Assembly: GCA_964009845.1 (NCBI GenBank)
Contig: CAXGIQ010000002.1
Location: forward strand, 1 to 39,265
Origin: an uncultured Flavobacteriales bacterium
Lineage (GTDB): Bacteria > Bacteroidota > Bacteroidia > Flavobacteriales > UBA7312
Length of the DNA stretch: 39,265 nucleotides
Direction of reading: 5' to 3'
The position numbers and the translations under genes were made by a program. Positions 4,532-29,683 of the stretch are shown piece after piece; within the stretch, counting starts at the first letter, position 1, and every line of letters starts with the position of its first letter. Under the pieces are notes generated by a model. It was given only the letters and a program-made list of their open reading frames with translations. It did no database searches and was not told the DNA's origin.

Positions 4532-5879
4532 ATCTATTAAATAAGAGACGTTGTCCTTTTTGGCTTTCATCAAATACACCGTTATAATAGGCTAAATGAC
4601 CGTTTACCCAAGTATGTGTTACTGATGATTGGAATATAGTGCCTTCAAAAGGTGACCAACCACATTTATACAGCACATTTTCTTTACTAACCTCCCAAGG
4701 ATTTTTTAAATCGACTAAAACTAAATCAGCGGCATATCCTTCACGAATAAAGCCTCTATTCTCTATTTGAAAGCAGATAGCTGGCGCATGGCTCATTTTT
4801 TCTACTATTTTTTCTAAAGTGATATTTCCTTGATGATAAAATTCTAACATAGCTGGAAGCGCATGCTGTACTAACGGACCTCCGGAAGGTGCATTGAAGT
4901 AAGTATTGTCTTTTTCTTCTAAGGTATGTGGAGCGTGATCTGTTGCTATCACATCAATTCTATCGTCTAGTAATGCTTGAAAGACAGCAGCTCTATCAGT
5001 TTCTGATTTTACTGCAGGATTCCACTTAATATGTGTTCCTTTTTCAGCATACTTACTTTCTTCAAACCATAGGTGATGAATACAGACTTCTGCTGTAATA
5101 CGCTTTTCAGCTAATGGGATGCTGTTATCGAACAGTTCCATTTCTTTAGCTGTAGAGAGATGAAAAACATGCAGTCGTGTATTGTGTTTTTTAGCTAACT
5201 CTACAGCCATGCTTGAAGATTTATAACATGCTTCTACGCTTCTTATTTTAGGGTGGTATTCTATTGGAATATCCTCACCAAATTGTGCTTTATACAAATC
5301 TGTATTTGTTTGTACCATTGTTTCATCCTCGCAATGCACCGCTATCAACATTGGTGATTTAGCAAAAATTTCTTCCAATACTGTACGGTTATCTACTAAC
5401 ATATTACCAGTAGAAGACCCCATAAAAATCTTTACAGCTCCAACTCTTTTTGGGTCTGTTTTTAACACCTCTTCTAGATTGTCGTTAGAAGCACCCATGA
5501 AGAATGTATAATTAGCCAAAGACACTTGTGCAGCTCTTTGAAATTTCTCTTCCAATAATTCTTGTGTTAATGATTGTGGCTTCGTATTGGGCATCTCCAT
5601 AAAAGAAGTAATCCCTCCTGCAACTGCTGCCTTAGCTTCTGTATAAATTTCTGCTTTATGTGTTAACCCCGGCTCTCTAAAATGTACTTGATCATCTATT
5701 ACACCAGGGATAAGGTACTTACCACTTGCATCTACTACTTGGTCTGCAACACATTCTATATTTTCTGAAATTTCTTGAATTATCCCATTTTGAAGGAACA
5801 CATCTGATTGAAAAATCTTTCCTTCATTAACAATGGTTGCATTTTTAATGAGTGTTTTTACCATTTGCTTTGCGTTCAA
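4530..5879 (-). CDS. pyrC: Dihydroorotase (amidohydrolase superfamily, Bacteroidota type)
   Basis: 449 aa. Metal-site region is VIDDQVHFREPGLTHKAEI; other matches include AVHCED and ATDHAPH. An alternative start at 5861 (MVKTLIKNATIVNEG) would reduce the overlap with the upstream gene. Confidence 0.85.
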   Translation of the reverse strand: MNAKQMVKTLIKNATIVNEGKIFQSDVFLQNGIIQEISENIECVADQVVDASGKYLIPGVIDDQVHFREPGLTHKAEIYTEAKAAVAGGITSFMEMPNTKPQSLTQELLEEKFQRAAQVSLANYTFFMGASNDNLEEVLKTDPKRVGAVKIFMGSSTGNMLVDNRTVLEEIFAKSPMLIAVHCEDETMVQTNTDLYKAQFGEDIPIEYHPKIRSVEACYKSSSMAVELAKKHNTRLHVFHLSTAKEMELFDNSIPLAEKRITAEVCIHHLWFEESKYAEKGTHIKWNPAVKSETDRAAVFQALLDDRIDVIATDHAPHTLEEKDNTYFNAPSGGPLVQHALPAMLEFYHQGNITLEKIVEKMSHAPAICFQIENRGFIREGYAADLVLVDLKNPWEVSKENVLYKCGWSPFEGTIFQSSVTHTWVNGHLAYYNGVFDESQKGQRLLFNR

Positions 5880-6594
5880 ACTTAGTAAACCAACTTATTA
5901 CTTTCATCTGAATTACTCCAATAAATGCTTCGAGAAAGATATCGGAACTCATCTTAGATTCTCCTTCAGTACGGTCTGTAAAAATCACTGGCACTTCTAC
6001 TACATTAAAGCCGTGTTTCCATGCTTTAAACTTCATCTCTATTTGGAAAGCATAACCCACAAACTGAATCTTGTCGAAATTGATGTTTTCCAACACTTCT
6101 CTTCGGTAACACTTATAACCAGCTGTTGAGTCTTGAATAGGAAGTCCTGTGACAAACTTTACATATTTGGATGCAAAATAAGATATTAGCAATCGACTCA
6201 TTGGCCAATTAACAATATTTACTCCATTCACATAGCGAGAGCCTATTGATAAATCTCCTCCTTCTAAACAAGCGCTATGTAATCTAATTAAATCATTAGG
6301 ATCGTGAGAAAAGTCAGCATCCATCTCAAAAACAAACTGATAATCTCTTTCTAACGCCCATTTAAATCCGTGTATATAAGCCGTTCCTAGACCAAGCTTA
6401 CCTGTACGCTCTTCAACATATAATCCTTGAAATTCTTTTTGAAGCGCTTTTACAATATCAGCCGTTCCATCTGGAGATCCGTCATCAACAATCAATACAT
6501 GAAAAGCTTTTTCCAAGAAAAATACTTTACGTAAAATTCGCTCAATATTTTCTTTTTCATTGTAAGTAGGAATGATGATTAAGCTATCTGACAT
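5845..6594 (-). CDS. GT2 polyprenol/dolichol-phosphate mannose synthase-like glycosyltransferase
   Basis: 249 aa. The sequence IIIPTYNEKENI...LIVDDGSPDGT...FEMDADFSHDP is a typical GT-A/Dpm1-like signature. Confidence 0.85.
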   Translation of the reverse strand: MSDSLIIIPTYNEKENIERILRKVFFLEKAFHVLIVDDGSPDGTADIVKALQKEFQGLYVEERTGKLGLGTAYIHGFKWALERDYQFVFEMDADFSHDPNDLIRLHSACLEGGDLSIGSRYVNGVNIVNWPMSRLLISYFASKYVKFVTGLPIQDSTAGYKCYRREVLENINFDKIQFVGYAFQIEMKFKAWKHGFNVVEVPVIFTDRTEGESKMSSDIFLEAFIGVIQMKVISWFTKFERKANGKNTH

Positions 6595-8532: not shown

Positions 8533-8575
8533 TTTTACTCATATTTATTTAACTATCAATTCACATTGATAAATT

Positions 8576-8583
8576 CAAATATA
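8576..8583 (-). promoter_or_regulatory. Bacteroidota -7 promoter box (TATATTTG on the minus strand) for acs
   Basis: The reverse complement of caaatata matches TAnnTTTG. It lies about 43 nt upstream of the acs start. Confidence 0.45.
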
Positions 8584-8596
8584 AAAGATAAAATAG

Positions 8597-8604
8597 TAAG
8601 TTTG
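8597..8604 (+). promoter_or_regulatory. Bacteroidota -7 promoter box (TAAGTTTG) for the LTD - TonB receptor - HKD operon
   Basis: Exact TAnnTTTG match. It overlaps the ORF-track GTG start at 8604, which argues for ATG 8631 as the real start. Confidence 0.5.
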
Positions 8605-8630
8605 TGAAGTATAACCAAAAACTACAATCA

Positions 8631-9554
8631 ATGAAAAAGATTATTATTATTCCATTATTTTTAATAGGCTTTGTTGCAATAGCACAAGATTGTTCTAACC
8701 TATTTATTTCAGAATATGTTGAAGGCCCAGGGAATAACAATGCTATAGAAATTTACAACCCCACTACAGAAACAATAAGTTTAGATGGATACTCTATTAA
8801 CAGATATTCTAATGGAGACCCTGACATAGGAGAGACATGGCCCCTTAGCGGATCATTAGAGTCTGGACAAGCTATTTCTATTGGAAATGGACAAGTTGAT
8901 TCTGTTTGGGTTGACGGACTTGGATACTGGTCTTTACCTGTAGACAACGCTTTTTACAATGCCTGCGACCTACATTGTAGTGGAGAGTATCCAACTCCAT
9001 TTTACTTCAATGGAGATGATGCAATAACTCTTGAAAAAGACGGTCAAAAAGTTGATATCTTTGGAAAGATAGAACAAGACCCAGGAGGTGCGTGGACAGA
9101 TGATCCTTCTGCAGGGTTTACTGATGCCAATGGAGGAGATTGGTGGACTAAAAGAAAAACTTTAGTGAGGAAAGCATCTATTAAGTCTGGAGTCTCTACT
9201 AATCCAGTAGTATTTAACCCAACACTTGAATGGGATTCTTTACCTGATGGAACATATGATAATTTAGGATATCATGATTGTGATTGTCCAACAGAAACGG
9301 TAGGTATTAAAGACAATCAAATCTCATATTTTTTATTTCCAAATCCAGCAACTATATCTAATGGTTTTGAAATCACTGCTTCAGAAGAAATACTGTCTTA
9401 TAAATTACACAATATTTTGGGAGGTGTTGTGCTAGAAAATTCTGCTCACACTTTTAAAGCAAGCGTAAATACTTTTGGCCTTGCTAAAGGCATTTACACT
9501 TTAAGTTTAAAATTTGAGAATCAAACGAAACTAGAGAAAATACTTATACAATAA
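8631..9554 (+). CDS. Secreted lamin-tail-domain (LTD) protein with a T9SS type-A C-terminal sorting domain
   Basis: Signal peptide: MKKIIIIPLFLIGFVAIA/QD. LTD pattern at about 8691-9278: LFISEYVEGPGNNNAIEIYNPT...FNGDDAITL...TLVRK...EWDSL. C-terminal sorting domain at about 9321-9551: FLFPNPATISNGFEITAS...AKGIYTLSL. Confidence 0.8.
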   Translation: MKKIIIIPLFLIGFVAIAQDCSNLFISEYVEGPGNNNAIEIYNPTTETISLDGYSINRYSNGDPDIGETWPLSGSLESGQAISIGNGQVDSVWVDGLGYWSLPVDNAFYNACDLHCSGEYPTPFYFNGDDAITLEKDGQKVDIFGKIEQDPGGAWTDDPSAGFTDANGGDWWTKRKTLVRKASIKSGVSTNPVVFNPTLEWDSLPDGTYDNLGYHDCDCPTETVGIKDNQISYFLFPNPATISNGFEITASEEILSYKLHNILGGVVLENSAHTFKASVNTFGLAKGIYTLSLKFENQTKLEKILIQ

Positions 9555-9572
9555 CAACAGAAACCTTCTTTC

Positions 9573-12434
9573 ATGAAATCATTTTTAAGTGTATTTCTGT
9601 GTTTGTTCGCTATACTTTTCTCTCATGCACAAAACATAACAGGAAAAGTGTATGATGATTCTAGTGGGGAACCATTAATTGGAGCAACTGTCACTTTTAA
9701 TGATAAGTTTGGAGCCATCACTAATCTTGATGGTGGGTTTTCGTTTTATATAAATTCCGAAAAAGAAGAATCTCATATTGAAGTTTCGTATGTTGGTTTT
9801 GAACCAAAAAGTCAGATTGTTAATATTAAGAATGAATCTTTATTTCTTGAGTTTAGGTTAAATTCAATACAACTTAATGAAGTTAATGTTGTGGCAGATG
9901 TTGCTCGAGACAGACATACTCCCGTTGCATTTTCTACAATTCCAGTTAAAAAAATAGCTGAAGAGCTTGCTTCTCAAGATGTTCCCATGATTTTAAACTC
10001 TACTCCGGGAGTATACGCAACCCAAAGTGGGGGCGGTGATGGAGATGCGAGAATTACAATTAGAGGATTCAACCAGCGTAATGTTGCTGTAATGATAGAT
10101 GGCATACCTGTTAACGACATGGAAAACGGATGGGTATACTGGAGCAACTGGTTTGGGTTAGACGCTGTAACATCCAACATTCAAGTACAAAGAGGTTTAG
10201 GGGCTTCTAAAATTGCTATCCCATCTGTTGGGGGAACCATGAATATCCTTACGAAAGGAATTAGCAATAAAGAAGAATTTAAAATTAAACAAGAAATCGG
10301 TTCTTTTGGAAAGTTGAGAACATCAATAGGATACAACTCTGGAAAACTAAAAAGAGGATGGGGATATACATTAGCTTCATCCTATAAAAGAGGAAATGGA
10401 TTTGTAGATGAAACTTGGACCGAAGGATTTTTCTACTACACAAAAATTCAAAAAGAATTAGGGAAGCATACCTTTAGTGTTTCAGCAATGGGTGCACCTC
10501 AAAAGCATGGACAACGCTCCTACAAAAGCGATATTGCAACATATGATGCAGATTACGCTTCTTCAATAGGAGTGCATGATTCTACTTTTGGAGAATTCAA
10601 CAACTTAGGAATTAACTACAACAAACATTGGGGATTTTTAAATCGATGGACAGTTAATAACGAAGGAGATACTCTTCATTCAAATAGCACACTTAACACT
10701 AAACAAAATTATTATCACAAACCTCAGTTTTCCATCCGCGATTTTTGGGCTGTAAATAACAAACTATACATATCAAACATCATCTATGCTTCTATTGGTC
10801 ATGGAGGAGGAACAGGCTTAAGCGGAAATTATGACAACTATGATTCAAATGGTCAATACAACTTACAATCTGTTTACGATTTCAATAGCACAAGTATTAA
10901 CGCTGATTATTCTAATGACTTAACCATTGCTGACACTTATATCAGAACTGCAATTAACAATCACTATTGGTACGGCTTATTATCAACTGCTAATTATCAG
11001 GCTAGTGAAGAATGGACATTCTCTGGCGGCATTGACCTACGTTCATATAAAGGTGAGCATTACCGAGAAGTATACGACTTATTAGGAGCAGATTATGTTG
11101 TAGAGGAAGGCGCAAACTTACTTCAAACATCTCAGATAAAAACCTCCGGCGACATTGTCGGATACCATAATGACGGATTAGTAAAATGGAGCGGAGTCTT
11201 TGCGCAAGCAGAGTATAGTAACAATAAGCTTAGTGCATTTTTTAATGTCTCCGGCTCTAATTCTGCTTACAAACGAATTGATTACTTCAAAAAAATGAAC
11301 CTTTTAATAGGTGATGTCGTATTGGAAGACACTTTAGGAACAAGTGTCGCCACTGTCTACAACTACAATGTAGATGGAACAGAAATATCTTCATTGGAAT
11401 ACGATCAAGAATTAGCCTCTTTTTTAACATCAATAACTAAAGAAACTGTTATTGACACAGTATATTACAATGGCATTGCTTACACCATTTTTTCACCGGA
11501 AGCACAACATTCACAAACGAACTGGAAGTGGATAAGAGGATATACTTTTAAAGGAGGAGCAAACTACAACATTGATGATAAACAAAATGTGTTTTTTAAT
11601 ACAGGCTATATTTCAAAAGCACCAAGATTTAACAATGTTTACGACTATAATAATGAGTTATGGGGAGACATTAGGAATGAAATAGTAAAGGCTGCGGAAG
11701 GGGGTTATTCGTATCGATCCCCATCCTTTTCAGCCAACATTAACACCTACTATACTATTTGGGAAAACAAGCCTGTAAATAGTGGCATAACATTAGAAGA
11801 TGATGATGGCAATAGAATTAAAGGAAATATAAACGGAATAGATGCTCTACATAAAGGAGTTGAATTAGATTTTGCAGTCCCTATTAATCGACAGCTTACA
11901 ATTGAAGGTCTCCTTTCTTTTGGCGATTGGCGATGGACTTCAGAAGAAACTATTTTATATTATGATGATTCAGGCAATCCATATATTGACCCTAACACCA
12001 ATGAGCAAGCTACTACATATTTTGACGCAAGAGGCGTACATGTTGGAGATGCAGCTCAAACACAAGTTGGATCAAGCGTACGATTTGAGCCAAGTTCTAA
12101 AACTTATATTAAATTAAGAGGTACTTATTTCGACAGGTACTTTGCTGATTTTGACCCATCGTCCTTAAACGAAGAAAATGCCGGAAGAGCATCTTGGAAA
12201 ATCCCATCGTACAAAACTTTTGACTTACATTGCGGACATACATTTTCTACGTTTCAAAATAGCAAGTTAAATCTCAGATTAAGCATACTTAATCTTTTAA
12301 ACGAAATTTATATTTCTGACGCACAAAATAATGACGGGTATAACGCTAACTATTCAGACTTTGACGCAAAATCAGCAGGAGTGTTTTTTGGATTAGGAAG
12401 ACGCATCAATTTATCCGTACAACTTAAATTTTAA
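9573..12434 (+). CDS. TonB-dependent outer-membrane receptor (CarboxypepD_reg-like N-domain + plug + barrel); no SusD partner
   Basis: 953 aa with a signal peptide. N-domain: ITGKVYDDSSGEPLIGATVTF. Plug: ITIRGFNQRNVAVMIDGIPVND...VQRGLGAS. The C-terminus ends ...LSVQLKF with a terminal Phe. The next gene is not SusD-like. Confidence 0.9.
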   Translation: MKSFLSVFLCLFAILFSHAQNITGKVYDDSSGEPLIGATVTFNDKFGAITNLDGGFSFYINSEKEESHIEVSYVGFEPKSQIVNIKNESLFLEFRLNSIQLNEVNVVADVARDRHTPVAFSTIPVKKIAEELASQDVPMILNSTPGVYATQSGGGDGDARITIRGFNQRNVAVMIDGIPVNDMENGWVYWSNWFGLDAVTSNIQVQRGLGASKIAIPSVGGTMNILTKGISNKEEFKIKQEIGSFGKLRTSIGYNSGKLKRGWGYTLASSYKRGNGFVDETWTEGFFYYTKIQKELGKHTFSVSAMGAPQKHGQRSYKSDIATYDADYASSIGVHDSTFGEFNNLGINYNKHWGFLNRWTVNNEGDTLHSNSTLNTKQNYYHKPQFSIRDFWAVNNKLYISNIIYASIGHGGGTGLSGNYDNYDSNGQYNLQSVYDFNSTSINADYSNDLTIADTYIRTAINNHYWYGLLSTANYQASEEWTFSGGIDLRSYKGEHYREVYDLLGADYVVEEGANLLQTSQIKTSGDIVGYHNDGLVKWSGVFAQAEYSNNKLSAFFNVSGSNSAYKRIDYFKKMNLLIGDVVLEDTLGTSVATVYNYNVDGTEISSLEYDQELASFLTSITKETVIDTVYYNGIAYTIFSPEAQHSQTNWKWIRGYTFKGGANYNIDDKQNVFFNTGYISKAPRFNNVYDYNNELWGDIRNEIVKAAEGGYSYRSPSFSANINTYYTIWENKPVNSGITLEDDDGNRIKGNINGIDALHKGVELDFAVPINRQLTIEGLLSFGDWRWTSEETILYYDDSGNPYIDPNTNEQATTYFDARGVHVGDAAQTQVGSSVRFEPSSKTYIKLRGTYFDRYFADFDPSSLNEENAGRASWKIPSYKTFDLHCGHTFSTFQNSKLNLRLSILNLLNEIYISDAQNNDGYNANYSDFDAKSAGVFFGLGRRINLSVQLKF

Positions 12435-12439
12435 CTCTT

Positions 12440-14596
12440 ATGAGATCATTCAGTATTATTCTTTGCTTATTATTTTCAATCACAAGTACAGCACAAACAA
12501 TAGCAGAAGCTAGAGCTATGGGAGTTGGAGCTACCGTCACAGTAAATGGTATTGTAACAAATGGAGAAGAATTAGGTGATATTAGATATATAGAAGACGC
12601 GACAGCGGGTATTGGTATTTATGAACCAGCAATTATGAATAGCGTAGAGAGAGGTGATAGCATTACAGTAACTGGCGAGTTAGTCGATTTCTACGGACTT
12701 TTAGAAATACAACCCGTTAATAATTTAACTACACATAATAATGGATACTCTATCACCCCTCAGTTGATTACACCTAGCGAAATGGGGGAAGACACAGAGG
12801 GTGAACTAGTTAGAATCAATAACCTAATTTTTGATAATGGCGGAGGTATTTTTAGCTCTGGAACACATGGATTTGTTGCCAATGGAGAGGCGGGCGTAAT
12901 TTATATTAAAAATGGATCTCCATTGGTTGGAGAATTAATTCCTGTTGAAGAAATTGGTTTAATTGGAATTTCTTCTCAATATACATTTACTGGATTTGGG
13001 GGGTATCAATTGCTGCCAAGAGATATAAATGACTTTATATTTAGTGACGGGGTGTTAATTACGAGCCCTTTAACACAATCGAATATTTCAACAACATCTT
13101 TTGACATAAGTTGGAACACAAGTATGTATGCTAGTTCCGAGTGTTTTTATGGATTAACTTCTGCATTAGAACTAGGATTGCTTAGTGAAAGCACTAACAC
13201 GAGCGAACATGTTCTTAATATTAACAATTTGACACCTGGAAATATCTATTATGTCATGGCTTTTTCAGTCGCTAATGGTGATACCGCATTTTCAAATTTA
13301 TCCGTTTTTGCTACAGCATCTCTTTCATCAGGAACAATGAAGGCTTATTTTAATCAATCTGTAGACAATAGCGTTGCGACTATAGAAAATGCTCAAAACA
13401 TTTCTGTGTTTTTTAACGACACAATCAAGGCATATCTTGATCGAGCTAATGAAAGCATAGATATTGCTATCTATAATCATTCTGATGCTCTGATAACAAC
13501 CGCTATCAATGATGCTTATGAAAGAGGTGTTCAAATACGATACATCAGCTGTGGCACTACTGCATCTACAGCTATTGGAGATTTTAACAACAATATCCCC
13601 ACCTTAGAAAGACCTGATGATGGGTCAGGGTTAATGCATAATAAGTTTGTCATTATTGATGCTAACAATGCAGACAGTTCTTGGGTGATTTCTGGCGGCA
13701 CAAATTGGACAAACAATCAACTTTTTGATGACTTTAATAATCTTATTTTAATTCAAGATCAATCATTAGCTAAAGCTTATGAAATAGAATTTGAAGAAAT
13801 GTGGGGGAGCAATAGCTTAATCCCAGATCAATTGAATGCAAAGTTTGGTCCTAACAAATCTGATAATACTCCTCATGAATTTTTAATAAATGGAAAACGA
13901 GTAGAATTATATTTTTCTCCTTCTGATCAAACTACTAATAAAATTATTACTGCTATAGAATCTACTGATAATGACGCACATTTTGGAACATTAGTTTTTA
14001 CAAAAAATGAACTCGCCTGGGCTTTAGAGGATGTTTTTAACAATGACTCTGAAGTAACCGGAATCATTGAGCAAATCAATACTCAAGGGTCTGAATACGA
14101 ATACCTATTAGATTTAGGCATTGATGTTCGGTCGCACATGGGGGTTAGCGGGCAATTTCATCATAAATATTGTGTTATTGATCAAGCTGAAACAACTTCT
14201 GATCCATTAGTAATTACTGGATCACATAATTGGTCAAGCGCAGCAGAAAACAAGAATGATGAAAACACACTTATTATTCATGATGCTAATATTGCCAATC
14301 AATATTATCAAGAATATATAGAACGGTTTAATGAGCTGTCTCAAGCAACACTTGCTTCATGGAATTGTGTAAGTGATGCTTGTATAGATCCAGGTGATGG
14401 TAGTGGAACTTTTAACTCTTTAGCATCATGTGTGGCATCATGTACAAGCAGTATTGAAGAGTGTGAAATTGAAAAAGGAAAACTTTTATACATTACCGAT
14501 GCACTAGGTCGTAAAACAGCAGCCAAAAAAGGAGAAGTCCAATTCTATATTTACCAAAACGGAACAGTAAAAAAACAACTCCAATTAAAACCATAA
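12440..14596 (+). CDS. Secreted two-HKD phospholipase D / Nuc-like phosphodiesterase with an OB-like N-module, Fn3, a 4-Cys module and a T9SS C-terminal sorting domain
   Basis: Signal peptide: MRSFSIILCLLFSITSTA/Q. HKD motif 1 is HNKFVIID at 13637-13660, followed by GGTNWT. HKD motif 2 is HHKYCVID at 14159-14182, followed by GSHNWS. The Fn3-like stretch is at about aa 204-291. The C-terminus reads LLYITDALGRK...FYIYQNGTVKK. Confidence 0.85.
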   Translation: MRSFSIILCLLFSITSTAQTIAEARAMGVGATVTVNGIVTNGEELGDIRYIEDATAGIGIYEPAIMNSVERGDSITVTGELVDFYGLLEIQPVNNLTTHNNGYSITPQLITPSEMGEDTEGELVRINNLIFDNGGGIFSSGTHGFVANGEAGVIYIKNGSPLVGELIPVEEIGLIGISSQYTFTGFGGYQLLPRDINDFIFSDGVLITSPLTQSNISTTSFDISWNTSMYASSECFYGLTSALELGLLSESTNTSEHVLNINNLTPGNIYYVMAFSVANGDTAFSNLSVFATASLSSGTMKAYFNQSVDNSVATIENAQNISVFFNDTIKAYLDRANESIDIAIYNHSDALITTAINDAYERGVQIRYISCGTTASTAIGDFNNNIPTLERPDDGSGLMHNKFVIIDANNADSSWVISGGTNWTNNQLFDDFNNLILIQDQSLAKAYEIEFEEMWGSNSLIPDQLNAKFGPNKSDNTPHEFLINGKRVELYFSPSDQTTNKIITAIESTDNDAHFGTLVFTKNELAWALEDVFNNDSEVTGIIEQINTQGSEYEYLLDLGIDVRSHMGVSGQFHHKYCVIDQAETTSDPLVITGSHNWSSAAENKNDENTLIIHDANIANQYYQEYIERFNELSQATLASWNCVSDACIDPGDGSGTFNSLASCVASCTSSIEECEIEKGKLLYITDALGRKTAAKKGEVQFYIYQNGTVKKQLQLKP

Positions 14597-14602
14597 ATAA
14601 AA

Positions 14603-14630
14603 CCCCCGCAAATGCGGGGCTTTTATTTTC
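14603..14630. terminator. Intrinsic terminator ending the LTD-TBDR-HKD operon; probably also serves the convergent hydrolase gene
   Basis: GC-rich hairpin ccccgc-aaat-gcgggg, followed by cttttatttt. An A-rich tract lies upstream. Confidence 0.75.
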
Positions 14631-14641
14631 TATTTGTTTGT

Positions 14642-15409
14642 CTAATCTGCGATACAAAAACGCAATACCTCATCAAAAAAACGATTAGGTTGTTCCGCAT
14701 GTACCCAATGCCCTGCATCAACAATAGTCACAATCTCCGCCTCTGGAAAATGTTCCAATATCAAATCTTCATCCTCATCCATTATGTAAGCAGAAAAAGC
14801 GCCATCTACAAATAAGCAAGGACCCTTATACTCCATTTTATCAGCTAATACTTTTCCTACCTCTGTTATATTCTCAGCTATTGCCTCTAGGTTAAAACGA
14901 AAAGCCAATTGCTCTTTTTCCACCCAATACAAGCTCTTCAATAAAAACTGCCTAACACCAGCAGCATCAATATGTTCCGCTAATTTTCTGTCAGCCTCAC
15001 CGCGACTCCTTAGCACACTAAAATCTAAACTTTGTAAACCTTCAATAATCTTATCATGATGTACCGGATAAGCTTTTGGAGATATATCAACTACTATCAA
15101 TTTCTGCACCAAATCAGGATGCTTCACAGCAAGCTCCATAGCTGTTTTACCTCCCAAAGAGTGCCCCATCAAAAGCACATTGTTTAACTTATGCTCTTTT
15201 ATATACTTCACCAAATCATTAGCCAACACCTCATAATTAAAAACCGTACTATGTGGCGATCTACCATGGTTTCTTTGATCGATTAAATGTACTTCGTAAA
15301 AATCAGCAAATTTCTTACCTAAACTCAGCCAATTATCCGACATGCCAAACAAACCATGTACAATGAGAAGTGGCTGCCCCTCTCCCATTATTCTTGAAAA
15401 AAGTTTCAC
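14642..15409 (-). CDS. Alpha/beta-fold hydrolase (YbfF-like esterase)
   Basis: 255 aa. The nucleophile elbow GHSLGG is present, with HGLFG near the N-terminus and DAGHWVH near the C-terminus. It overlaps pdxJ by 4 nt. Confidence 0.85.
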   Translation of the reverse strand: MKLFSRIMGEGQPLLIVHGLFGMSDNWLSLGKKFADFYEVHLIDQRNHGRSPHSTVFNYEVLANDLVKYIKEHKLNNVLLMGHSLGGKTAMELAVKHPDLVQKLIVVDISPKAYPVHHDKIIEGLQSLDFSVLRSRGEADRKLAEHIDAAGVRQFLLKSLYWVEKEQLAFRFNLEAIAENITEVGKVLADKMEYKGPCLFVDGAFSAYIMDEDEDLILEHFPEAEIVTIVDAGHWVHAEQPNRFFDEVLRFCIAD

Positions 15410-16119
15410 TGCAATTGGCGTTTATATAATTGTATTGTATTGTCTAAACCTAAGTACAAAGCATCTGAAATCAGCGCATGCCCTATAGAAACTTCTAGTA
15501 AGTTAGGAACCTGCTCTGCAAAAAAAGCCAAGTTATCTAAATTCAAGTCATGTCCTGCATTCAGTCCTAAGCCAAGCTCACCGGCAAGCTTCCCAGCAGT
15601 TACAAAAGGAGCTATTGCCTCTCGCCTATCTTGTACATATCCTACAGCATAGCTCTCAGTATACAATTCCACCCTATCAGTACCACAAGCCAAAGCACCC
15701 TCCACGTGGCGCAATTCCGTATCCACAAATATAGAAGTACGAATACCCACTTCTTTTAGTACGCCAATAACATCTTGCAGCAAATTCTTCTGCCCCACAG
15801 TATCCCATCCAGCGTTAGAAGTCAACACTCCAGGAGGATCCGGCACCAAAGTAACCTGATGTGGTTTGGTAGCCATCACCAACTCCATAAAGCGCTCCGA
15901 AGGGTAGCCCTCCACATTAAACTCTGTTTTCACCAATGGTTTCAATTCCTCTACATCAAGGTAAGTAATGTGTCGTTCGTCAGGCCTGGGGTGCACTGTT
16001 ATGCCGTCCGCCCCAAACTGCTCACAACGCTGTGCAGCCAAACTCACACTCGGCAATTTACCACCACGAGCATTTCGTAAACTCGCTATTTTATTGATGT
16101 TAACACTTAGCTTTGTCAT
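15406..16119 (-). CDS. pdxJ: Pyridoxine 5'-phosphate synthase
   Basis: MTKLSVNINKIASLRNARG...HPRPDERH...GHDLN is a typical PdxJ pattern. The ORF-track TTG start at 16137 lies inside the -7 box, so ATG 16119 is preferred. Confidence 0.9.
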   Translation of the reverse strand: MTKLSVNINKIASLRNARGGKLPSVSLAAQRCEQFGADGITVHPRPDERHITYLDVEELKPLVKTEFNVEGYPSERFMELVMATKPHQVTLVPDPPGVLTSNAGWDTVGQKNLLQDVIGVLKEVGIRTSIFVDTELRHVEGALACGTDRVELYTESYAVGYVQDRREAIAPFVTAGKLAGELGLGLNAGHDLNLDNLAFFAEQVPNLLEVSIGHALISDALYLGLDNTIQLYKRQLQ

Positions 16120-16134
16120 CTCGTATAAAAAAAG

Positions 16135-16142
16135 CAAAGGTA
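16135..16142 (-). promoter_or_regulatory. Bacteroidota -7 promoter box (TACCTTTG on the minus strand) for pdxJ
   Basis: The reverse complement of caaaggta matches TAnnTTTG. It lies 15 nt upstream of ATG 16119. Confidence 0.5.
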
Positions 16143-16156
16143 TAAATACTATTACT

Positions 16157-16164
16157 TATGTTTG
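16157..16164 (+). promoter_or_regulatory. Bacteroidota -7 promoter box (TATGTTTG) for the CBS-domain gene
   Basis: Exact TAnnTTTG match, 10 nt upstream of ATG 16175. Confidence 0.5.
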
Positions 16165-16174
16165 CCACAAGATT

Positions 16175-16828
16175 ATGCTAAGTCAAAAACTCATAGCTAC
16201 CGATATTAGCCCTGCTTTACCTAGCGATAGCGGAATGAACGTCATGTCGTTAATGGACGAATTTAAAGTGTCTCATTTACCCGTTGTAGAAAAAGGACAA
16301 CTGTTAGGGCTTATTTCTGAAGATGACATTTGGGACATGCATAATGAGGAAAAACCCATAAATAGCATCTTGCTCAAGCAGGTATTTGTAACTTTTGAAC
16401 ACGATGTTTTTGAAATAGTCAAAATGGTCAATGAACATGACCTTACACTAATTCCAGTAGTAGATAATAACCGCTATGTGGGCGCTATTAGTGTCCGATC
16501 AATTATCAAAGCATTAGCATCTATAGTAGCCATGCAATCCGAAGGTGGTGTTATAATATTGGAAATGAATAAAAATGACTATTCCATGAGCGAAATGGCA
16601 CAAATTGTAGAAGGAAACAATGCAAAAATTTTAAGCTCCTATGTAAGCAATCATAAGGATAGTAATATGATTAAGGTAACTCTCAAGCTCAATATCAATG
16701 AATTGAGTCCTGTTGTCCAAACCTTCCAGCGCTACGATTACACCATTACAGCTCACTACGACCATTCTCAATCTAATGATGGATTACAAGATCGATACGA
16801 TTCTTTAATGCGCTACCTTAATATCTAA
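16175..16828 (+). CDS. CBS-pair domain protein
   Basis: 217 aa from ATG 16175 (MLSQKLIATDI...). Two CBS-like repeats are present (VSHLPVVEKGQLLGLISEDDI and LTLIPVVDNNRYVGAISVRSI). The 15968 start in the ORF track would run antisense through pdxJ. Confidence 0.8.
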   Translation: MLSQKLIATDISPALPSDSGMNVMSLMDEFKVSHLPVVEKGQLLGLISEDDIWDMHNEEKPINSILLKQVFVTFEHDVFEIVKMVNEHDLTLIPVVDNNRYVGAISVRSIIKALASIVAMQSEGGVIILEMNKNDYSMSEMAQIVEGNNAKILSSYVSNHKDSNMIKVTLKLNINELSPVVQTFQRYDYTITAHYDHSQSNDGLQDRYDSLMRYLNI

Positions 16829-27139: not shown

Positions 27140-29683
27140 ATGTTCAGATTTTGTTTATCTCTAATGCTTTTGTGTAAGATCTCTTACACTCAGCCATTAA
27201 CCGATGGGATGGCAATTGTGACTCACTGGAGTCAAAATGGATTATATGATGCTTTTAGCATTTTTGACACACAAAATACTTTGGATGCTCCACTAGGGTT
27301 AAATTGGGGCACTACATTTCACACCCCTGCTGATCCAGCAATTCATGCTCAATGGAAAAATATTGGTGACGTTTTTGGCATTGCTATAGACAACCAAAAA
27401 AATGTTTACTTCACTGCAACTCGATCTATTTCAAGTAGCGGTTCCGCAGGCACTTCAGCAGGTCCTGCTGGTGATGCTGGTGTTTATAAAATGAATGCAG
27501 CAGATTGGAGTATCACTGAATTTATAACAACAGGGAGCGGAGTAAATCAGATGCCTAATTTTGGAGTTGGATTAGGAAACATCTGCTATGACGAATGGAA
27601 TGACCAACTATTTATCACCAATTTTGAAGATGGAAAAATTTACCGCTATAATATGAGTGGCGATTTACTTTCTTCCTTCGATCCTTTTACTGCAGATGAT
27701 GGAAGTAATGGATTTGTTGGACACGGAGAGGCTATTTGGGGAATCAATGTGTTTGGAAACAACCAAGCAAACCTTAAAGTATATTTCTCTCAATGGACAG
27801 AAGACAATTCTTTAAGTGATGCTAGTGGAGTGAATAATTCAGTATGGTCTGTTGAGCTTAATGCCACAGGAGATTTTATGTCAGGGACTGAAACATTATG
27901 CTTCAGTCTTCCCAACATCGAATATGTTTGGGAGACAATAGAAGGCGGTTCATATCCTATTTCTGATATCACTTTTGATTCTCAGGGAAATATGTTTTTA
28001 TGTGAAAAAACACAAGGAGGATGGGGTGCATTCGGAGGGTGGAATGATTGTTTCACACCTGGAGCGCACAGTTCTAGATTGTTTCAATACAGTCAGAATA
28101 GTGGTTCTTGGACATTAGCAGAACACTATGCTGTTGGAAATTATCAAACACCGGATGCTGGAAACAATACTACAGGAGGTGTAGCAATTGGAAATAAAGA
28201 AACCGAAAATGGTATTGACTGTGAAAAATTAATTTGGTGTACCGGTGATGCTTTAAGATTTTCGGGTTACAACCCCCCTGATGGCGGGCAAACTTATATA
28301 TATGGAGCTGCTGCTATTCCTGTAGAAGGAAATTCTTTAGATGTTGGAGCTGCTGACTATGGTCCAACTAGTAGCATATATGTCGATGTAGATTATACAG
28401 GGATGGGTACAAGCGGTGCCATCAAAATGGCTTATGGAGATATTGAGATTTGGTCAGATGCAGTTGCAGAAGCAAGTTTTACTATAAGTCCTGATGAAAC
28501 AATTTGTGAAGGAGGTTCAACTATTTTAAGTGTAACAGGAGGAACTAATTATTCATGGAGTCCATCTACTGGACTAGACGATATAAATAGTGCTAATCCA
28601 ACAGCTAATCCAATCACACAAACCACCTATACTGTAACAGGAGAGGGTGCATGTGGAGGTACTGCTGAGGCAAGTATAACAATTAGTATAGATAACTTCA
28701 ATATTGAATTAGGACCAGATCAAGCAATTTGCGAAGGTACTGAAAGCCCTGTCCTACTAGATGCAGGAATTGCGAATTCGTACTTATGGAATACAAATGA
28801 AACCACTCAAATCATAAGTGTTAATACCCCAGGAGAATATAGTGTTGAAGTAACAAGCCCTAACAATTGCTCGTATTTTGACACTTTAACTATCACCGAA
28901 AGCACTCCTCCTTCTGTTGACTTTTTTGCATCAGACACAGACGAATGTATTCCAGCAAGATTTCAGTTAACAAACCTCAGCACATCAGCTGAAGGGGATC
29001 CAATACAAAATTGGGAATGGAGTTGTAACAACGAAACATCAAACTATATCGACCCTGTTTTCCATATTGATAACCCAGGGACATATGATGTTAGTCTAAC
29101 AACAACTTCAGAGGAAGGATGCGAAAGCACATTTATTATAACTGACTATCTAACTGTTCATCCCAACCCAGTAGCTGACTTTAGTTTTTATCCCGAATTG
29201 ATTAGTCATTGTGAGAAAACAGTAGAGTTTTTTAATAATTCAACAGGATATGAAAGCCTAACTTGGACTTTAGGTGATGAAACAGCTATTAGTGAGGACA
29301 CCTTGTCTTTGTATACTTTCCCTACAATGGGTTGGTATTTTATTCAACTCAACTTAGTTTCTGAATATGGATGTGAAGAAGTGACTAATAGATGGATAAA
29401 GCCAGCAGATGACGAGCCGTTTTATGCTCCAAACGCATTTACGCCAAACAATGATGGCAATAATGATATCTTTAAACCCATCATTGAGTGTGCTCCAAAC
29501 TTTGAATTTTGGGTGTTTAATCGATGGGGGGCTGAAATTTTTTATACCACAGATATTAATGAAGGTTGGAATGGATATTTTCAAGATAAGCTCTGTCAAA
29601 TAGGCAAGTATAGTTGGAAAGTAAAATATGACAATACAAAACCAAACCAAATTGAAACTGGTGAAGTACATTTGATGCACTAA
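27140..29683 (+). CDS. Large T9SS type-B (CHU_C / gliding-motility-associated C-terminal domain) cell-surface protein with Ig-like and PKD-like repeats
   Basis: 847 aa. The C-terminal domain at about 29414-29680 reads FYAPNAFTPNNDGNNDIFKP...FNRWG...GWNG. Ig-like repeats show the pattern ICEGGSTILSVTGGTNYSWSPS. Two PKD-like modules are present. The N-terminal roughly 440 aa is unassigned. Confidence 0.8.
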   Translation: MFRFCLSLMLLCKISYTQPLTDGMAIVTHWSQNGLYDAFSIFDTQNTLDAPLGLNWGTTFHTPADPAIHAQWKNIGDVFGIAIDNQKNVYFTATRSISSSGSAGTSAGPAGDAGVYKMNAADWSITEFITTGSGVNQMPNFGVGLGNICYDEWNDQLFITNFEDGKIYRYNMSGDLLSSFDPFTADDGSNGFVGHGEAIWGINVFGNNQANLKVYFSQWTEDNSLSDASGVNNSVWSVELNATGDFMSGTETLCFSLPNIEYVWETIEGGSYPISDITFDSQGNMFLCEKTQGGWGAFGGWNDCFTPGAHSSRLFQYSQNSGSWTLAEHYAVGNYQTPDAGNNTTGGVAIGNKETENGIDCEKLIWCTGDALRFSGYNPPDGGQTYIYGAAAIPVEGNSLDVGAADYGPTSSIYVDVDYTGMGTSGAIKMAYGDIEIWSDAVAEASFTISPDETICEGGSTILSVTGGTNYSWSPSTGLDDINSANPTANPITQTTYTVTGEGACGGTAEASITISIDNFNIELGPDQAICEGTESPVLLDAGIANSYLWNTNETTQIISVNTPGEYSVEVTSPNNCSYFDTLTITESTPPSVDFFASDTDECIPARFQLTNLSTSAEGDPIQNWEWSCNNETSNYIDPVFHIDNPGTYDVSLTTTSEEGCESTFIITDYLTVHPNPVADFSFYPELISHCEKTVEFFNNSTGYESLTWTLGDETAISEDTLSLYTFPTMGWYFIQLNLVSEYGCEEVTNRWIKPADDEPFYAPNAFTPNNDGNNDIFKPIIECAPNFEFWVFNRWGAEIFYTTDINEGWNGYFQDKLCQIGKYSWKVKYDNTKPNQIETGEVHLMH

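Follow-up and report, generated by a model that had tools for sequence, protein, structure and literature searches.

The three genes described here, which encode a lamin tail domain (LTD) protein (ORF1), a SusD-less TonB-dependent transporter (TBDT; ORF2) and a double-HKD protein (ORF3), probably constitute an operon for the use of extracellular nucleic acid, most likely DNA, sharing its outer-membrane core with the DNA-utilisation loci ddbABCDEF of gut Bacteroidales (Sharan et al., PNAS 2025, PMC12478041). This reading has three independent supports: the similarity of ORF2 to DdbC (Pv), the DUF5689/HIN-like N-terminus of ORF3 and the nuclease-like character of its HKD halves. The capture, degradation and import module proposed in an initial annotation is therefore retained, in the sense that, judged by homology, the trio looks like a kit to catch, cut and import seawater DNA.

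Operon structure and conserved gene order

Within the window, the whole 39,265 nt stretch that was analysed, the three ORFs were listed on the same strand with spacings of 18 and 5 nt (Table 1). All three translations open with SPI-type signal peptides, and a GC-rich hairpin with a T-run follows ORF3, in each respect as initially annotated. The hairpin is bidirectional, also serving a convergent alpha/beta-hydrolase gene. A GTG at 8604 was rejected as the start of ORF1, as it overlaps the box at 8597-8604 and orthologues begin at the aligned MKK; on this alignment, the true start is the ATG at 8631.

Table 1. Features of the three-gene locus, in window coordinates
Feature	Position	Strand	Details
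Bacteroidota -7 promoter box TAAGTTTG	8597..8604	+	27 nt 5' of ORF1 ATG; sequence read and cross-locus conservation
ORF1, 307 aa	8631..9554	+	signal peptide 8631-8687; lamin tail domain ~8688-9065; middle region; T9SS type-A sorting domain 9333-9551
ORF2, 953 aa	9573..12434	+	signal peptide; CarboxypepD_reg-like extension 9636-9890; plug 9912-10235; barrel ending in Phe
ORF3, 718 aa	12440..14596	+	signal peptide; DUF5689/HIN-like tandem-OB; FN3-like; double-HKD core; 4-Cys module; C-terminal tail
Tandem OB-fold domain (DUF5689, DdbD-like), predicted DNA binder	12491..13057	+	ORF3 aa 18-206
FN3-like / purple-acid-phosphatase-N-like beta-sandwich spacer	13070..13276	+	ORF3 aa 211-279
Double-HKD catalytic core	13427..14335	+	motif 1 13637-13705; motif 2 14159-14230
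4-Cys module NCVSDACIDPGDGSGTFNSLASCVASC	14363..14443	+	ORF3 aa 642-668
Conserved ~40-aa C-terminal tail in place of T9SS type-A CTD	14474..14593	+	ORF3 aa 679-718
Intrinsic-terminator-like hairpin CCCCGCAAATGCGGGG with T-run	14604..14629	+	6 GC pairs, loop 4

The initial annotation had recognised a single -7 box, but the TAnnTTTG motif alone is present at chance level, since 58 copies were seen in the window against 54±7 expected, with five further plus strand copies inside the operon. Its position 5' of the LTD gene is nevertheless supported by comparison: of 48 non-redundant upstream regions from orthologous loci, 43 contained a TAnnTTTG-type box, mostly 18-39 nt 5' of the LTD gene ATG, against 10.2±2.9 in shuffles. 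Upstream of the TBDT gene there was no excess (3 of 37 regions, 2.6 by chance). The two short gaps, the one terminator and a conserved box before the LTD gene only all point to an operon.

The order LTD, TBDT, HKD recurs in 49 of 57 Bacteroidota loci, carried by Flavobacteriales, Cryomorphaceae, Saprospiraceae, Salinivirgaceae and others, with a median of 12 nt between the TBDT stop and the HKD start (61 loci), whereas the flanks vary: an acetyl-CoA synthetase gene lies upstream in only 21 of the 49 trio loci, and a hydrolase gene downstream in only 15 of 59. Such retention of order amid changing flanks, found on making the synteny check that the initial annotation had suggested, argues for a functional link. 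That the three genes are chance neighbours, or independently transcribed without a joint function, is extremely improbable in view of this order, the very tight gaps and the lack of conservation of any promoter box upstream of the TBDT gene, even though copies of TAnnTTTG lie within the operon and the HKD gene is found without the other two in 8 of the 57 loci, implying that the enzyme can act without them. In place of the TBDT, two lineages have a pair of LTD proteins beside the HKD gene, together with a phytase-like propeller and a phosphate-selective porin.

The LTD protein and the transporter

ORF1 contains an LTD (PF00932, E = 3e-15 against Pfam), aligns with the N-terminal part of ExeM (model NF033680, E = 1e-15) and ends in a Por_Secre_tail domain (PF18962, E = 2e-8; TIGR04183, E = 2e-10); alongside this sorting domain, the T9SS cargo of the genome includes a type-B protein encoded at 27140-29683. 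LTDs are accessory domains of ExeM/NucH/EndA-type nucleases, and the initial comparison with ExeM and NucH accessory modules holds, ORF3 residues 48-127 also matching the ExeM_NucH model (E = 4e-4).

Pfam recognised the CarbopepD_reg_2 and Plug domains of ORF2, which ends in ...QLKF and hence the expected terminal Phe, but not the barrel that had also been assigned to it; nor could any solved TBDT barrel be detected by sequence. ORF2 had no match to the SusC/RagA model TIGR04056, and no SusD-like protein was present among the window ORFs of ≥120 aa scanned against Pfam, in agreement with its description as SusD-less. BLASTP aligned ORF2 over its full length with DdbC_Pv1 of Phocaeicola vulgatus (1-953/5-915, 32.5% identity, E = 1e-145) and gave 32.4% identity with DdbC_Pv2 (E = 7e-140), with local matches only to DdbC Bt1 and Bt2. 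The two published DdbC types are more distant from one another (~25% identity, E = 1e-37 to 1e-62) than ORF2 is from DdbC_Pv1, and among the best 150 matches of ORF2 in 1.84 billion representatives are clusters that share 50-54% identity with Pv1 and Pv2. By sequence, ORF2 is thus a SusD-less TBDT of the DdbC (Pv) family, although its 32% identity to DdbC_Pv falls below the 50% that the ddb authors use as a subtype cut-off (PMC12478041).

For P0252, a transporter relative 48% identical to Pv1, the next gene encodes a 'choice-of-anchor J'/DUF5017 protein, annotated like RA0C_RS04920 of Riemerella (PMC8459023). Distant relatives adjoin a type-I phosphodiesterase, or a 5'-nucleotidase and a nucleoside transporter; others, at 34-38% identity, lack nuclease genes in their neighbourhood or have an uninformative context, which counts against the DNA reading.

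Domains, substrate and export of ORF3

The N-terminal domain of ORF3 matched DUF5689 (PF18942) at E = 5e-6, its 26.9 bits narrowly missing the Pfam cut-off of 28.6, while the orthologue at locus L054 reached 39.5 bits (E = 7e-10). In the AF2 model (pLDDT 91), the top Foldseek PDB matches of this tandem-OB domain were the dsDNA-binding HIN-200 domains of IFI16, MNDA, p202 (including 4jbm), p204 and AIM2 (E = 2e-4 to 8e-3), a likeness that should be regarded as moderate (TM ~0.4). The following spacer has weak Pfam matches to fn3 (E = 0.02) and Pur_ac_phosph_N (E = 0.07) and was modelled as all-beta (pLDDT 88-93).

The double-HKD assignment was corroborated by two PLDc_2 matches (E = 1e-35), both HxK...D...N motifs being intact (H400/K402/D407/N422 and H574/K576/D581/N597) and the catalytic residues invariant across the orthologue alignment. 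By sequence, the halves appear closest to the nuclease members NucT, Nuc and Zucchini: NucT models matched down to E = 1e-17, the only PDB sequence matches were Zucchini/MitoPLD (9e-11) and Nuc (4e-5), and PADLOC returned DrmC. Foldseek matched the HKD pair to PLD and PLD3 at 2e-15, and a single half to Nuc, NucT and Zucchini at TM 0.72-0.80. The fold alone leaves the substrate unfixed, because true phospholipase D and phosphatidylserine synthase are among the best whole-core structural matches, as is the exonuclease PLD3. The substrate might be a lipid or a phosphodiester polymer other than DNA, for instance RNA only, head groups of phospholipids, teichoic-type polymers or polyphosphate, to which the OB and LTD domains would bind; polyphosphate kinase, which shares the HKD fold, is a further structural match, public annotation names the family 'phospholipase D-like' or 'cardiolipin synthase-like', and phosphorus-scavenging contexts suit any organophosphate. 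Such a substrate seems quite unlikely, however, given that the best sequence-level matches are all nucleases, that the N-terminal domain has matches among HIN domains, which bind dsDNA, and in the N-terminus of ExeM/NucH, and that ORF2 is kin to a transporter from loci with verified DNases (PMC12478041).

Downstream of the core, the 4-Cys module is found in orthologues of 716-760 aa, twice in P0022, and is missing from 686-aa forms. The C-terminal tail matched nothing in Pfam or TIGRFAM even at E ≤ 10, and hhalign gave a probability of 1.6% for its alignment with the CTD of orthologues; among the 120 closest clusters, 89 have PF18962 at this position, and around 30, ORF3 included, bear the different, conserved ~40-aa tail. 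Type-A sorting domains had been annotated on both ORF1 and ORF3, with nuclease modules split over two T9SS cargo proteins; the sorting domain was recovered in ORF1, but ORF3, here without a recognisable T9SS domain, is not demonstrably T9SS cargo. Likewise, of the profile matches predicted, LTD, Plug, CarbopepD_reg_2, PLDc_2 and the Por_Secre_tail of ORF1 were recovered, but the barrel and a Por_Secre_tail on ORF3 were not. In most orthologues, a T9SS type-A domain would carry ORF3 to the surface; in this clade, the different tail has taken its place. The same tail also ends three proteins at locus L089, one EEP enzyme, one LRR protein and one uncharacterised protein, and an EEP fragment at L090; the secreted-type EEP and LRR proteins bearing it sit beside T9SS cargo, and the tail is a candidate sorting or anchoring module.

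Without a recognisable secretion domain, ORF3 could remain periplasmic, where it would be unable to serve as a surface lid. Had surface export been lost in this clade, ORF3 might resemble DdbB in finishing imported oligonucleotides, leaving ORF1 alone outside; an SPI signal peptide with no lipobox, the undetectable T9SS domain and the inclusion of a periplasmic nuclease in ddb loci (PMC12478041) accord with this. Yet it is very unlikely: the replacement tail is conserved, its occurrence on unrelated secreted-type EEP/LRR proteins beside T9SS cargo is the behaviour of a sorting or anchoring signal and not of a degenerate remnant, and the trio would then encode no extracellular nuclease.

Proposed function and comparison with known systems

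In the favoured scheme of extracellular DNA use, all three proteins would cross the inner membrane by Sec, in keeping with their signal peptides. ORF1, with its sorting domain, would leave via the T9SS as a surface or released accessory protein, its LTD suggesting a DNA-binding role. In ORF3, the HIN-like tandem-OB domain would hold DNA and the double-HKD centre, its motifs intact, would cut it. ORF3 is encoded 5 nt after ORF2, and its DUF5689 domain corresponds to DdbD, for which a role in binding substrate alongside DdbC has been proposed; ORF3 is therefore likely to form a lid on ORF2, with the nuclease built into it. ORF2, powered by TonB, would take oligonucleotides or nucleotides into the periplasm, as its homology to DdbC suggests, and phosphorus, nitrogen or nucleobases might be scavenged. 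The phytase/porin contexts, the phosphodiesterase and 5'-nucleotidase neighbours and the phosphate response of Flavobacterium johnsoniae would favour a phosphorus theme. 'Nutrient scavenging' may be too simple, because DNA was a poor sole source of carbon, nitrogen or phosphorus for B. thetaiotaomicron (PMC12478041). A further point against the DNA reading is that the Pv-type ddb loci are the less well tested ones: they depleted DNA partially or minimally, and deletion mutants of them are lacking (PMC12478041).

The proposed logic of the trio, namely surface binding, surface cleavage and TonB-dependent import, is that of SusC/SusD PULs, and its transporter likewise has a CarboxypepD_reg extension at the N-terminus, but the trio includes neither SusD nor glycoside hydrolases. 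ExeM/NucH/Xds nucleases of Shewanella, Aeromonas and Vibrio, with a role in extracellular DNA use, contain LTD and OB-type accessory modules, as do ORF1 and ORF3 together, yet have an EEP catalytic domain, all modules in one polypeptide, and neither a dedicated transporter gene nor the T9SS. ORF3 has the HxK...D motifs and fold of Salmonella Nuc, Helicobacter pylori NucT, Zucchini/PLD6 and PLD3/PLD4; Nuc, NucT and Zucchini carry one HKD domain each and dimerise, whereas ORF3, like PLD3, has both halves in one chain, with FN3, sorting and DNA-binding modules in addition. Purines are salvaged from external DNA by NucT, a nuclease associated with the outer membrane.

Under phosphate depletion, F. 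johnsoniae induces LTD-containing nucleases and SusD-less TBDTs (PMC8115612). Its regulon, which includes EndA1/EndA2 (FN3+LTD+Endonuclease_1), the SusD-less TBDT Fjoh_0545 and PusCD, resembles the trio in combining LTD/FN3-bearing secreted nucleases with CarbopepD_reg_2 TBDTs, for organic-phosphorus scavenging; the nuclease (Endonuclease_1) and barrel (PF14905) families differ, and the genes are not in the trio layout (PMC8115612).

The trio could alternatively be an outer-membrane DNA uptake system for natural transformation, not feeding, in which ORF2 and the DUF5689 domain of ORF3 would move DNA through the outer membrane, on the model put forward for Riemerella anatipestifer, and the nuclease would only trim it or make entry-competent ends. 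H. pylori NucT was first linked to transformation, which counts for this alternative. In Riemerella anatipestifer, of the order Flavobacteriales like the trio host, RA0C_RS04915 encodes a CarboxypepD_reg-type outer-membrane barrel with the domain pattern and NCBI-type naming of ORF2, the DUF5689 gene RA0C_RS04920 comes next, as in the plan of the trio, and the pair is essential for natural transformation (PMC8459023); the ddb authors regard the Riemerella and ddb systems as related (PMC12478041). Transformation is nonetheless unlikely, as the covalent joining of a double-HKD nuclease to a DNA-binding domain and the extra LTD protein point to degradation, no ComEC, DprA, ComF or similar competence family was found among the window ORFs scanned against Pfam, and the alternative contexts contain a phosphate porin and a phytase-like protein. 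Moreover, RS04920, which functions in competence, has no nuclease and carries a DUF5017/choice-of-anchor J part that ORF3 lacks, and its tie to the trio is drawn from annotation and from the ddb paper.

The initial annotation knew of no characterised system of this composition; the ddb loci and the Riemerella TBDT/DUF5689 pair are such precedents in plan, although an HKD nuclease fused to DUF5689, with an LTD partner and T9SS delivery, is undescribed in the searchable literature. Like the trio, ddb loci, among them BT3560-3563 (Bechon et al. 2022, PMC8851478), are PUL-like operons in which a SusD-less DdbC is immediately followed by a DUF5689/HIN-like DdbD, for which the same HIN-like fold was reported using 4jbm (PMC12478041), together with secreted nucleases. 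They differ in comprising six genes rather than three including an LTD protein, in encoding EEP-family nucleases (BT3562 and BT3563) rather than a double-HKD enzyme, in keeping nuclease and DUF5689 as separate proteins rather than fused, in surface delivery by lipoprotein signals rather than T9SS domains or a new tail, and in their gut Bacteroidales hosts, the trio being that of a marine planktonic flavobacterium. The HKD-DUF5689 fusion, the LTD partner and T9SS delivery are thus what is new in the trio; the DNA-utilisation logic is that already known from ddb loci.

Organisation, conservation and predicted transcription of the trio

The three genes studied here encode a lamin tail domain (LTD) protein (ORF1), a TonB-dependent transporter (ORF2) and a protein combining a DUF5689 domain with a double-HKD core (ORF3), separated by 18 nt between ORF1 and ORF2 and by 5 nt between ORF2 and ORF3. 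ORF1 most likely starts at ATG 8631, since a typical signal peptide results and the starts of orthologues align there. The trio is flanked by a divergent acetyl-CoA synthetase gene on one side and a convergent alpha/beta-hydrolase gene on the other, while the remainder of the window comprises housekeeping genes (BamA, Skp, UppS, SucA/B, TyrRS and others) and one gene for a type IX secretion system (T9SS) type-B cargo. A search for RNA elements found neither Rfam families nor tRNAs in the window.

Coordinates of the trio, and of C-terminal tail segments in the window and in two fetched genome loci (L089, L090)
Feature	Sequence	Position	Strand	Basis or location
ORF1 (LTD protein)	window	8604/8631-9554	+	ORF read
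ORF2 (transporter)	window	9573-12434	+	ORF read
ORF3 (DUF5689 and double HKD)	window	12440-14596	+	ORF read
Tail, consensus KLLYITDALGRKT..FYIY.NG.V.KK	window	14474-14593	+	ORF3 C-terminus
Hairpin, six GC pairs and T-run	window	14604-14629		downstream of ORF3
Tail-bearing ORFs	L089	7215-8243(-), 6412-7098(+), about 5282-6183(+)		tail profile match
Second EEP-type enzyme, C-terminal fragment with tail	L090	3-239	+	tail profile match

Relatives of ORF3 are numerous, with at least 2,967 clusters for this protein and, in a scan of one genome per species, 413 matching stretches, the best 80 of which were fetched. Upstream sequence reached 4.2 kb or more in 57 loci, and in 49 of these the LTD, transporter and HKD genes stand in the same order and orientation, which bears out the synteny expected from the initial annotation of this DNA; the 49 come from Flavobacteriales, Cryomorphaceae, Saprospiraceae, Salinivirgaceae and other groups. 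The acetyl-CoA synthetase gene is upstream in only 21 of the 49 trio loci and the hydrolase gene downstream in only 15 of 59; the order is kept while the flanks change, so the trio travels as a unit. The alternative that the three genes lack any functional link is harder to reconcile with this pattern than with the other eight loci, which have the HKD gene but not the other members of the trio. Six of the eight are orphans, chiefly in genomes of Marinilabiliales type. At the remaining two, L054 (12318-15554) and L048 (1420-5363), the HKD/DUF5689 gene lies beside genes for two LTD proteins, an SdiA-regulated/phytase-like propeller and a phosphate-selective porin (Porin_O_P); here the porin and propeller set stands in place of the TonB transporter while the LTD-HKD pairing persists, a neighbourhood that points to phosphorus acquisition. 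A Salinivirgaceae locus, L070, has two tandem HKD paralogues (10001-11917 and 12638-14521) after its LTD and transporter genes.

The -7 box previously described as the sole copy at this operon proved to be one of many: TAnnTTTG occurs 58 times in the window, against 54 ± 7 expected by chance, including five further copies on the + strand within the operon. The call of a promoter at the LTD gene was rescued by comparison, as a TAnnTT[T/A]G box is present in 43 of 48 non-redundant orthologous upstream regions (10.2 ± 2.9 in shuffles), mostly 18-39 nt 5' of the LTD start codon. At orthologous loci the region 5' of the transporter gene has the box no more often than chance (3 of 37, against 2.6), and the median gaps are 57 nt from LTD to transporter gene and 12 nt from transporter to HKD gene (61 loci). 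Given the box conserved before the LTD gene, its lack before the transporter gene and these gaps, the best reading would be a single promoter and a three-gene transcript. A scan for sigma-70 promoters was uninformative (36 matches, 28.9 ± 5.6 in shuffles). A second motif resembling TTAAC(C/T)T, found 60-125 nt 5' of the LTD start codon in 11 of the 48 loci (3.6 ± 1.8 in shuffles), may be a regulator site, its enrichment being mild and its position not fixed. Loci with this motif include L040, L045, L046, L053 and L056, it stands out most at loci of higher GC content, and the window's copy is at about 8547-8555 (TTTAACTAT).

Two further observations concern neighbouring genes. On the - strand, the position of TATATTTG (window 8576-8583) suits a -7 box for the divergently transcribed acetyl-CoA synthetase gene, whose start is at 8532, in which case the 98-nt spacer would carry two back-to-back promoters. 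The mechanical ORF of a CBS-domain protein (15406-16137(-)) overlaps pdxJ (15968-16828(+)) by 170 nt on the opposite strand, and the CBS gene itself probably begins at a more downstream position.

Relationship of ORF2 to the DdbC transporters

The ddbABCDEF loci of gut Bacteroidales, classified as subtypes Bt1, Bt2, Pv1 and Pv2, encode a TonB-dependent transporter (DdbC), a DUF5689 protein (DdbD), predicted to cap the transporter and similar to the dsDNA-binding HIN domain of p202, and nucleases that degrade DNA in vitro (PMC12478041). Deletion of the whole locus abolished DNA depletion, the evidence coming from the Bt1 locus, while DNA depletion is partial in Pv1 strains and minimal in Pv2 strains (PMC12478041).

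The identification of ORF2 as a TonB-dependent receptor stands as regards its CarboxypepD_reg-like extension, plug and C-terminal Phe, and lacks a Pfam match for the barrel. No solved relative was detectable by sequence search past the N-terminal extension. The family is large (547 clusters at E <= 1e-30 among 1.84 billion representatives), and was linked to DdbC by BLASTP comparison of ORF2 with the four query sequences printed in Table S3 of the ddb preprint. ORF2 aligns with DdbC of Pv1 at 32.5% identity over about 100% coverage (1-953/5-915, E = 1e-145) and with that of Pv2 at 32.4% identity (E = 7e-140); matches to Bt1 and Bt2 are local only (E = 9e-15 and 2e-7). The two published DdbC types are themselves about 25% identical to one another, and clusters with 50-54% identity to Pv1/Pv2 sit in ORF2's best 150 of the 1.84 billion representatives. 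Because of the full-length Pv1 and Pv2 matches and the Pv-like clusters in this best 150, ORF2 is classed, by sequence, as a distant member of the Pv-type DdbC family. The locus has the DdbC-homologous anchor transporter that characterises ddb-type loci; subtypes are assigned at BLASTp identity > 50% and coverage > 75%, so that an identity of at best 32.5% puts it outside all four.

The ddb authors see DdbC and DdbD as related to RA0C_RS04915 and RA0C_RS04920 (PMC12478041), both of which Riemerella anatipestifer requires for natural transformation (PMC8459023), and a rival explanation of the trio is DNA uptake for competence, as in that species. A transporter of interest here is P0252, a relative from gut Paludibacteraceae that is 48% identical to Pv1. 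The gene after it encodes a 'choice-of-anchor J'/DUF5017 protein, annotated as RS04920 is, and OB-fold proteins come next; the matches listed in a homologue search from P0252 toward DdbC were saturated by close relatives. RS04915 shares an annotation pattern with ORF2. Whereas the DUF5689 partner in the Riemerella pair also bears DUF5017/choice-of-anchor J, ORF3 does not: it has no DUF5017 or NF038128 match, while P0252's neighbour has one. Only the generic OB motif GD-x-V-x-V-T-G-x-L-x-x-Y-N-G aligns between that neighbour and the N-terminus of ORF3, which provides no evidence of orthology.

Among more distant transporter relatives, some adjoin a type-I phosphodiesterase, or a 5'-nucleotidase with a nucleoside transporter; others have no nucleotide or phosphodiester enzymes nearby, and these mixed neighbourhoods give weak support. 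One transporter from outside Bacteroidota, in a Gemmatimonas sp. MAG (locus L085, 7001-12642), is 35% identical to ORF2 and has a 5'-nucleotidase and a fragment of a nucleoside transporter in its vicinity.

Domains of ORF3 and predicted secretion of ORF1 and ORF3

The N-terminal 190 residues of ORF3 match DUF5689 (PF18942) at 26.9 bits, just below the cut-off of 28.6; the L054 orthologue passes with 39.5 bits, and many orthologues have a precomputed PF18942 assignment. As in ddb-type loci, a DUF5689 (DdbD-like, HIN-like) unit is encoded directly after the transporter, here as the N-terminal domain of ORF3, 5 nt past ORF2. The model of residues 18-206 (pLDDT 91) consists of two beta-barrels, whose top PDB matches are the HIN-200 proteins IFI16, MNDA, p202, p204 and AIM2 (E 2e-4 to 8e-3, TM about 0.4), including 4jbm, the p202 entry used for DdbD (PMC12478041); RPA, SSB and tRNA-synthetase OB folds come next. 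A further match, that of residues 48-127, is to the ExeM/NucH model (E = 4e-4), and a sequence search of the PDB with the N-terminal profile gave no match.

The core contains two PLDc_2 stretches (E = 1e-35). In the HKD superfamily, two copies of HxK(x)4D(x)6G(S/T)xN form one active site, and ORF3 has both motifs, on a PLD-fold model; their catalytic H, K, D and N residues are all retained and do not vary between homologues. Among curated models, the nuclease NucT scores best for the core (E = 1e-17), and a sequence search for solved proteins yielded Zucchini/MitoPLD (9e-11) and Nuc (4e-5) and no others; each HKD half superimposes on Nuc, NucT and Zucchini with TM 0.72-0.80 at 21-25% identity. 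That the substrate is a different phosphodiester is an alternative raised by the fold, as the full-length model (pLDDT 76) matches a mixture of two-domain PLD folds, among them phospholipase D, the 5' exonuclease PLD3, F13, PssA and PPK, and the fold therefore does not fix the substrate. The best sequence matches are nucleases only, and this affinity concurs with the DNA-binding domain and the transporter in pointing to nucleic acid. From the intact double-HKD motifs and nuclease-type best matches, the locus is predicted to encode a secreted DNase activity. A defence system was considered and rejected: each protein of the trio has a signal peptide, the surroundings show no sign of defence, and PADLOC returned no more than a generic HKD likeness to DrmC (E = 8.5e-9). 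Between the core and the C-terminal tail lies a four-Cys module, NCVSDACIDPGDGSGTFNSLASCVASC (window 14363-14443), which is doubled in the cluster representative P0022 and missing from 686-aa orthologues.

Both ORF1 and ORF3 have SPI-type signal peptides and no lipobox. ORF1 has an LTD (Pfam, E = 3e-15) that matches the N-terminus of the ExeM exonuclease model (E = 1e-15), and its C-terminus is the T9SS type-A sorting domain ascribed to it initially, above both curated cut-offs (PF18962, 35.1 bits against 27; TIGR04183, 40.2 bits against 23). The window also encodes an 847-aa protein with a PKD domain and a T9SS type-B sorting domain (27140-29683; CHU_C/TIGR04131), so the genome puts T9SS to use for further cargo.

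The type-A domain likewise claimed for ORF3 is not found in the window's protein, which has no Pfam or TIGRFAM match to one at E <= 10, and whose tail aligns with its own orthologues' sorting domains over one strand only (hhalign probability 1.6%). Orthologues at about 55% identity do have a recognisable Por_Secre_tail/TIGR04183 domain, and a YPNP-type Por_Secre_tail occurs in 89 of the 120 closest clusters. About 30 of the 120, including the window's ORF3, instead have in the same place a conserved tail of about 40 aa, KLLYITDALGRKT..GEVQFYIYQNGTVKK. It may be a shortened type-A domain, for or against which the one-strand alignment does not decide. When a profile of this tail was searched against the protein collection and all fetched DNA, it ended 0-2 residues ahead of the stop in every protein found; in L089 its carriers, all within 3 kb, are an Exo_endo_phos (EEP-family) enzyme, an LRR protein and a protein without assigned function. 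No Pfam or TIGRFAM model covers the tail on any of these proteins. Since it ends unrelated secreted-type proteins and substitutes for the T9SS domain position for position, the tail behaves like a compact sorting or anchoring signal, for which it is a new candidate, conceivably as a minimal T9SS signal. The rival view, that ORF3 is periplasmic in the window's clade, would fit its lack of a type-A domain and leave this substitution unaccounted for.

Proposed mechanism and comparison with known systems

The earlier functional reading, of a module for the capture, degradation and import of DNA or another phosphodiester, is largely right, with the secretion of ORF3 unconfirmed in the window. ORF1 would be exported and bind DNA, ORF3 would bind and cut DNA at the cell surface, and ORF2 would import the fragments. 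ORF3 probably docks on ORF2, as its DUF5689 domain is the counterpart of DdbC's proposed lid and its gene abuts the transporter gene. The gain would be phosphorus, nitrogen or nucleobase salvage; the phosphorus theme is suggested by the porin/phytase-like contexts, the phosphodiesterase and 5'-nucleotidase neighbours of distant transporters, and F. johnsoniae, whose phosphate-starvation regulon counts FN3+LTD nucleases and SusD-less transporters among its members (PMC8115612). A joint proposal, that a DNA-binding lid fused to a nuclease cuts DNA directly above the transporter pore and is surfaced in the window's clade by an undescribed sorting or anchoring tail of about 40 aa replacing the T9SS type-A domain, is put forward tentatively, as a possibility we consider rather unlikely to hold in full.

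Membership of a SusCD polysaccharide utilisation locus was rejected, the analogy being kept: ORF2 has no SusC/RagA TIGR04056 match, and no scanned window ORF of at least 120 aa has a SusD-like Pfam match, in agreement with the initial description of the locus as SusD-less. ExeM/NucH/Xds nucleases carry EEP, LTD and OB modules in one protein, whereas the trio has no EEP domain and has its LTD and OB-type modules on separate proteins.

We know of no dedicated DNA uptake route in planktonic flavobacteria, and the trio, if this reading is correct, would be one. Dissolved DNA is a large marine pool of organic phosphorus and nitrogen, in the turnover of which Bacteroidota are repeatedly implicated (PMC8289736). 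The system is widespread in marine flavobacteria and open to direct testing, and offers a compact, testable model of a TonB-dependent transporter handling a polyanionic polymer; the tail could be a new sorting signal, a short C-terminal end common to unrelated secreted proteins.

The initial view that such a system lacked precedent is out of date, as a DNA-utilisation locus combining a TonB transporter, a DUF5689 DNA binder and nucleases is a principle known since 2025, through the ddb loci (PMC12478041). In the literature searched, no such locus was found with an HKD nuclease, with one fused to a DUF5689 domain, with an LTD partner, with T9SS delivery or with a marine planktonic host range. 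The surface proteins of ddb are SPII lipoproteins, unlike the SPI-type ORF1 and ORF3, the former with its T9SS domain. If correct, the trio would extend the ddb principle from gut to ocean through a different engineering solution, in which substrate-binding lid and nuclease form one chain delivered by T9SS.
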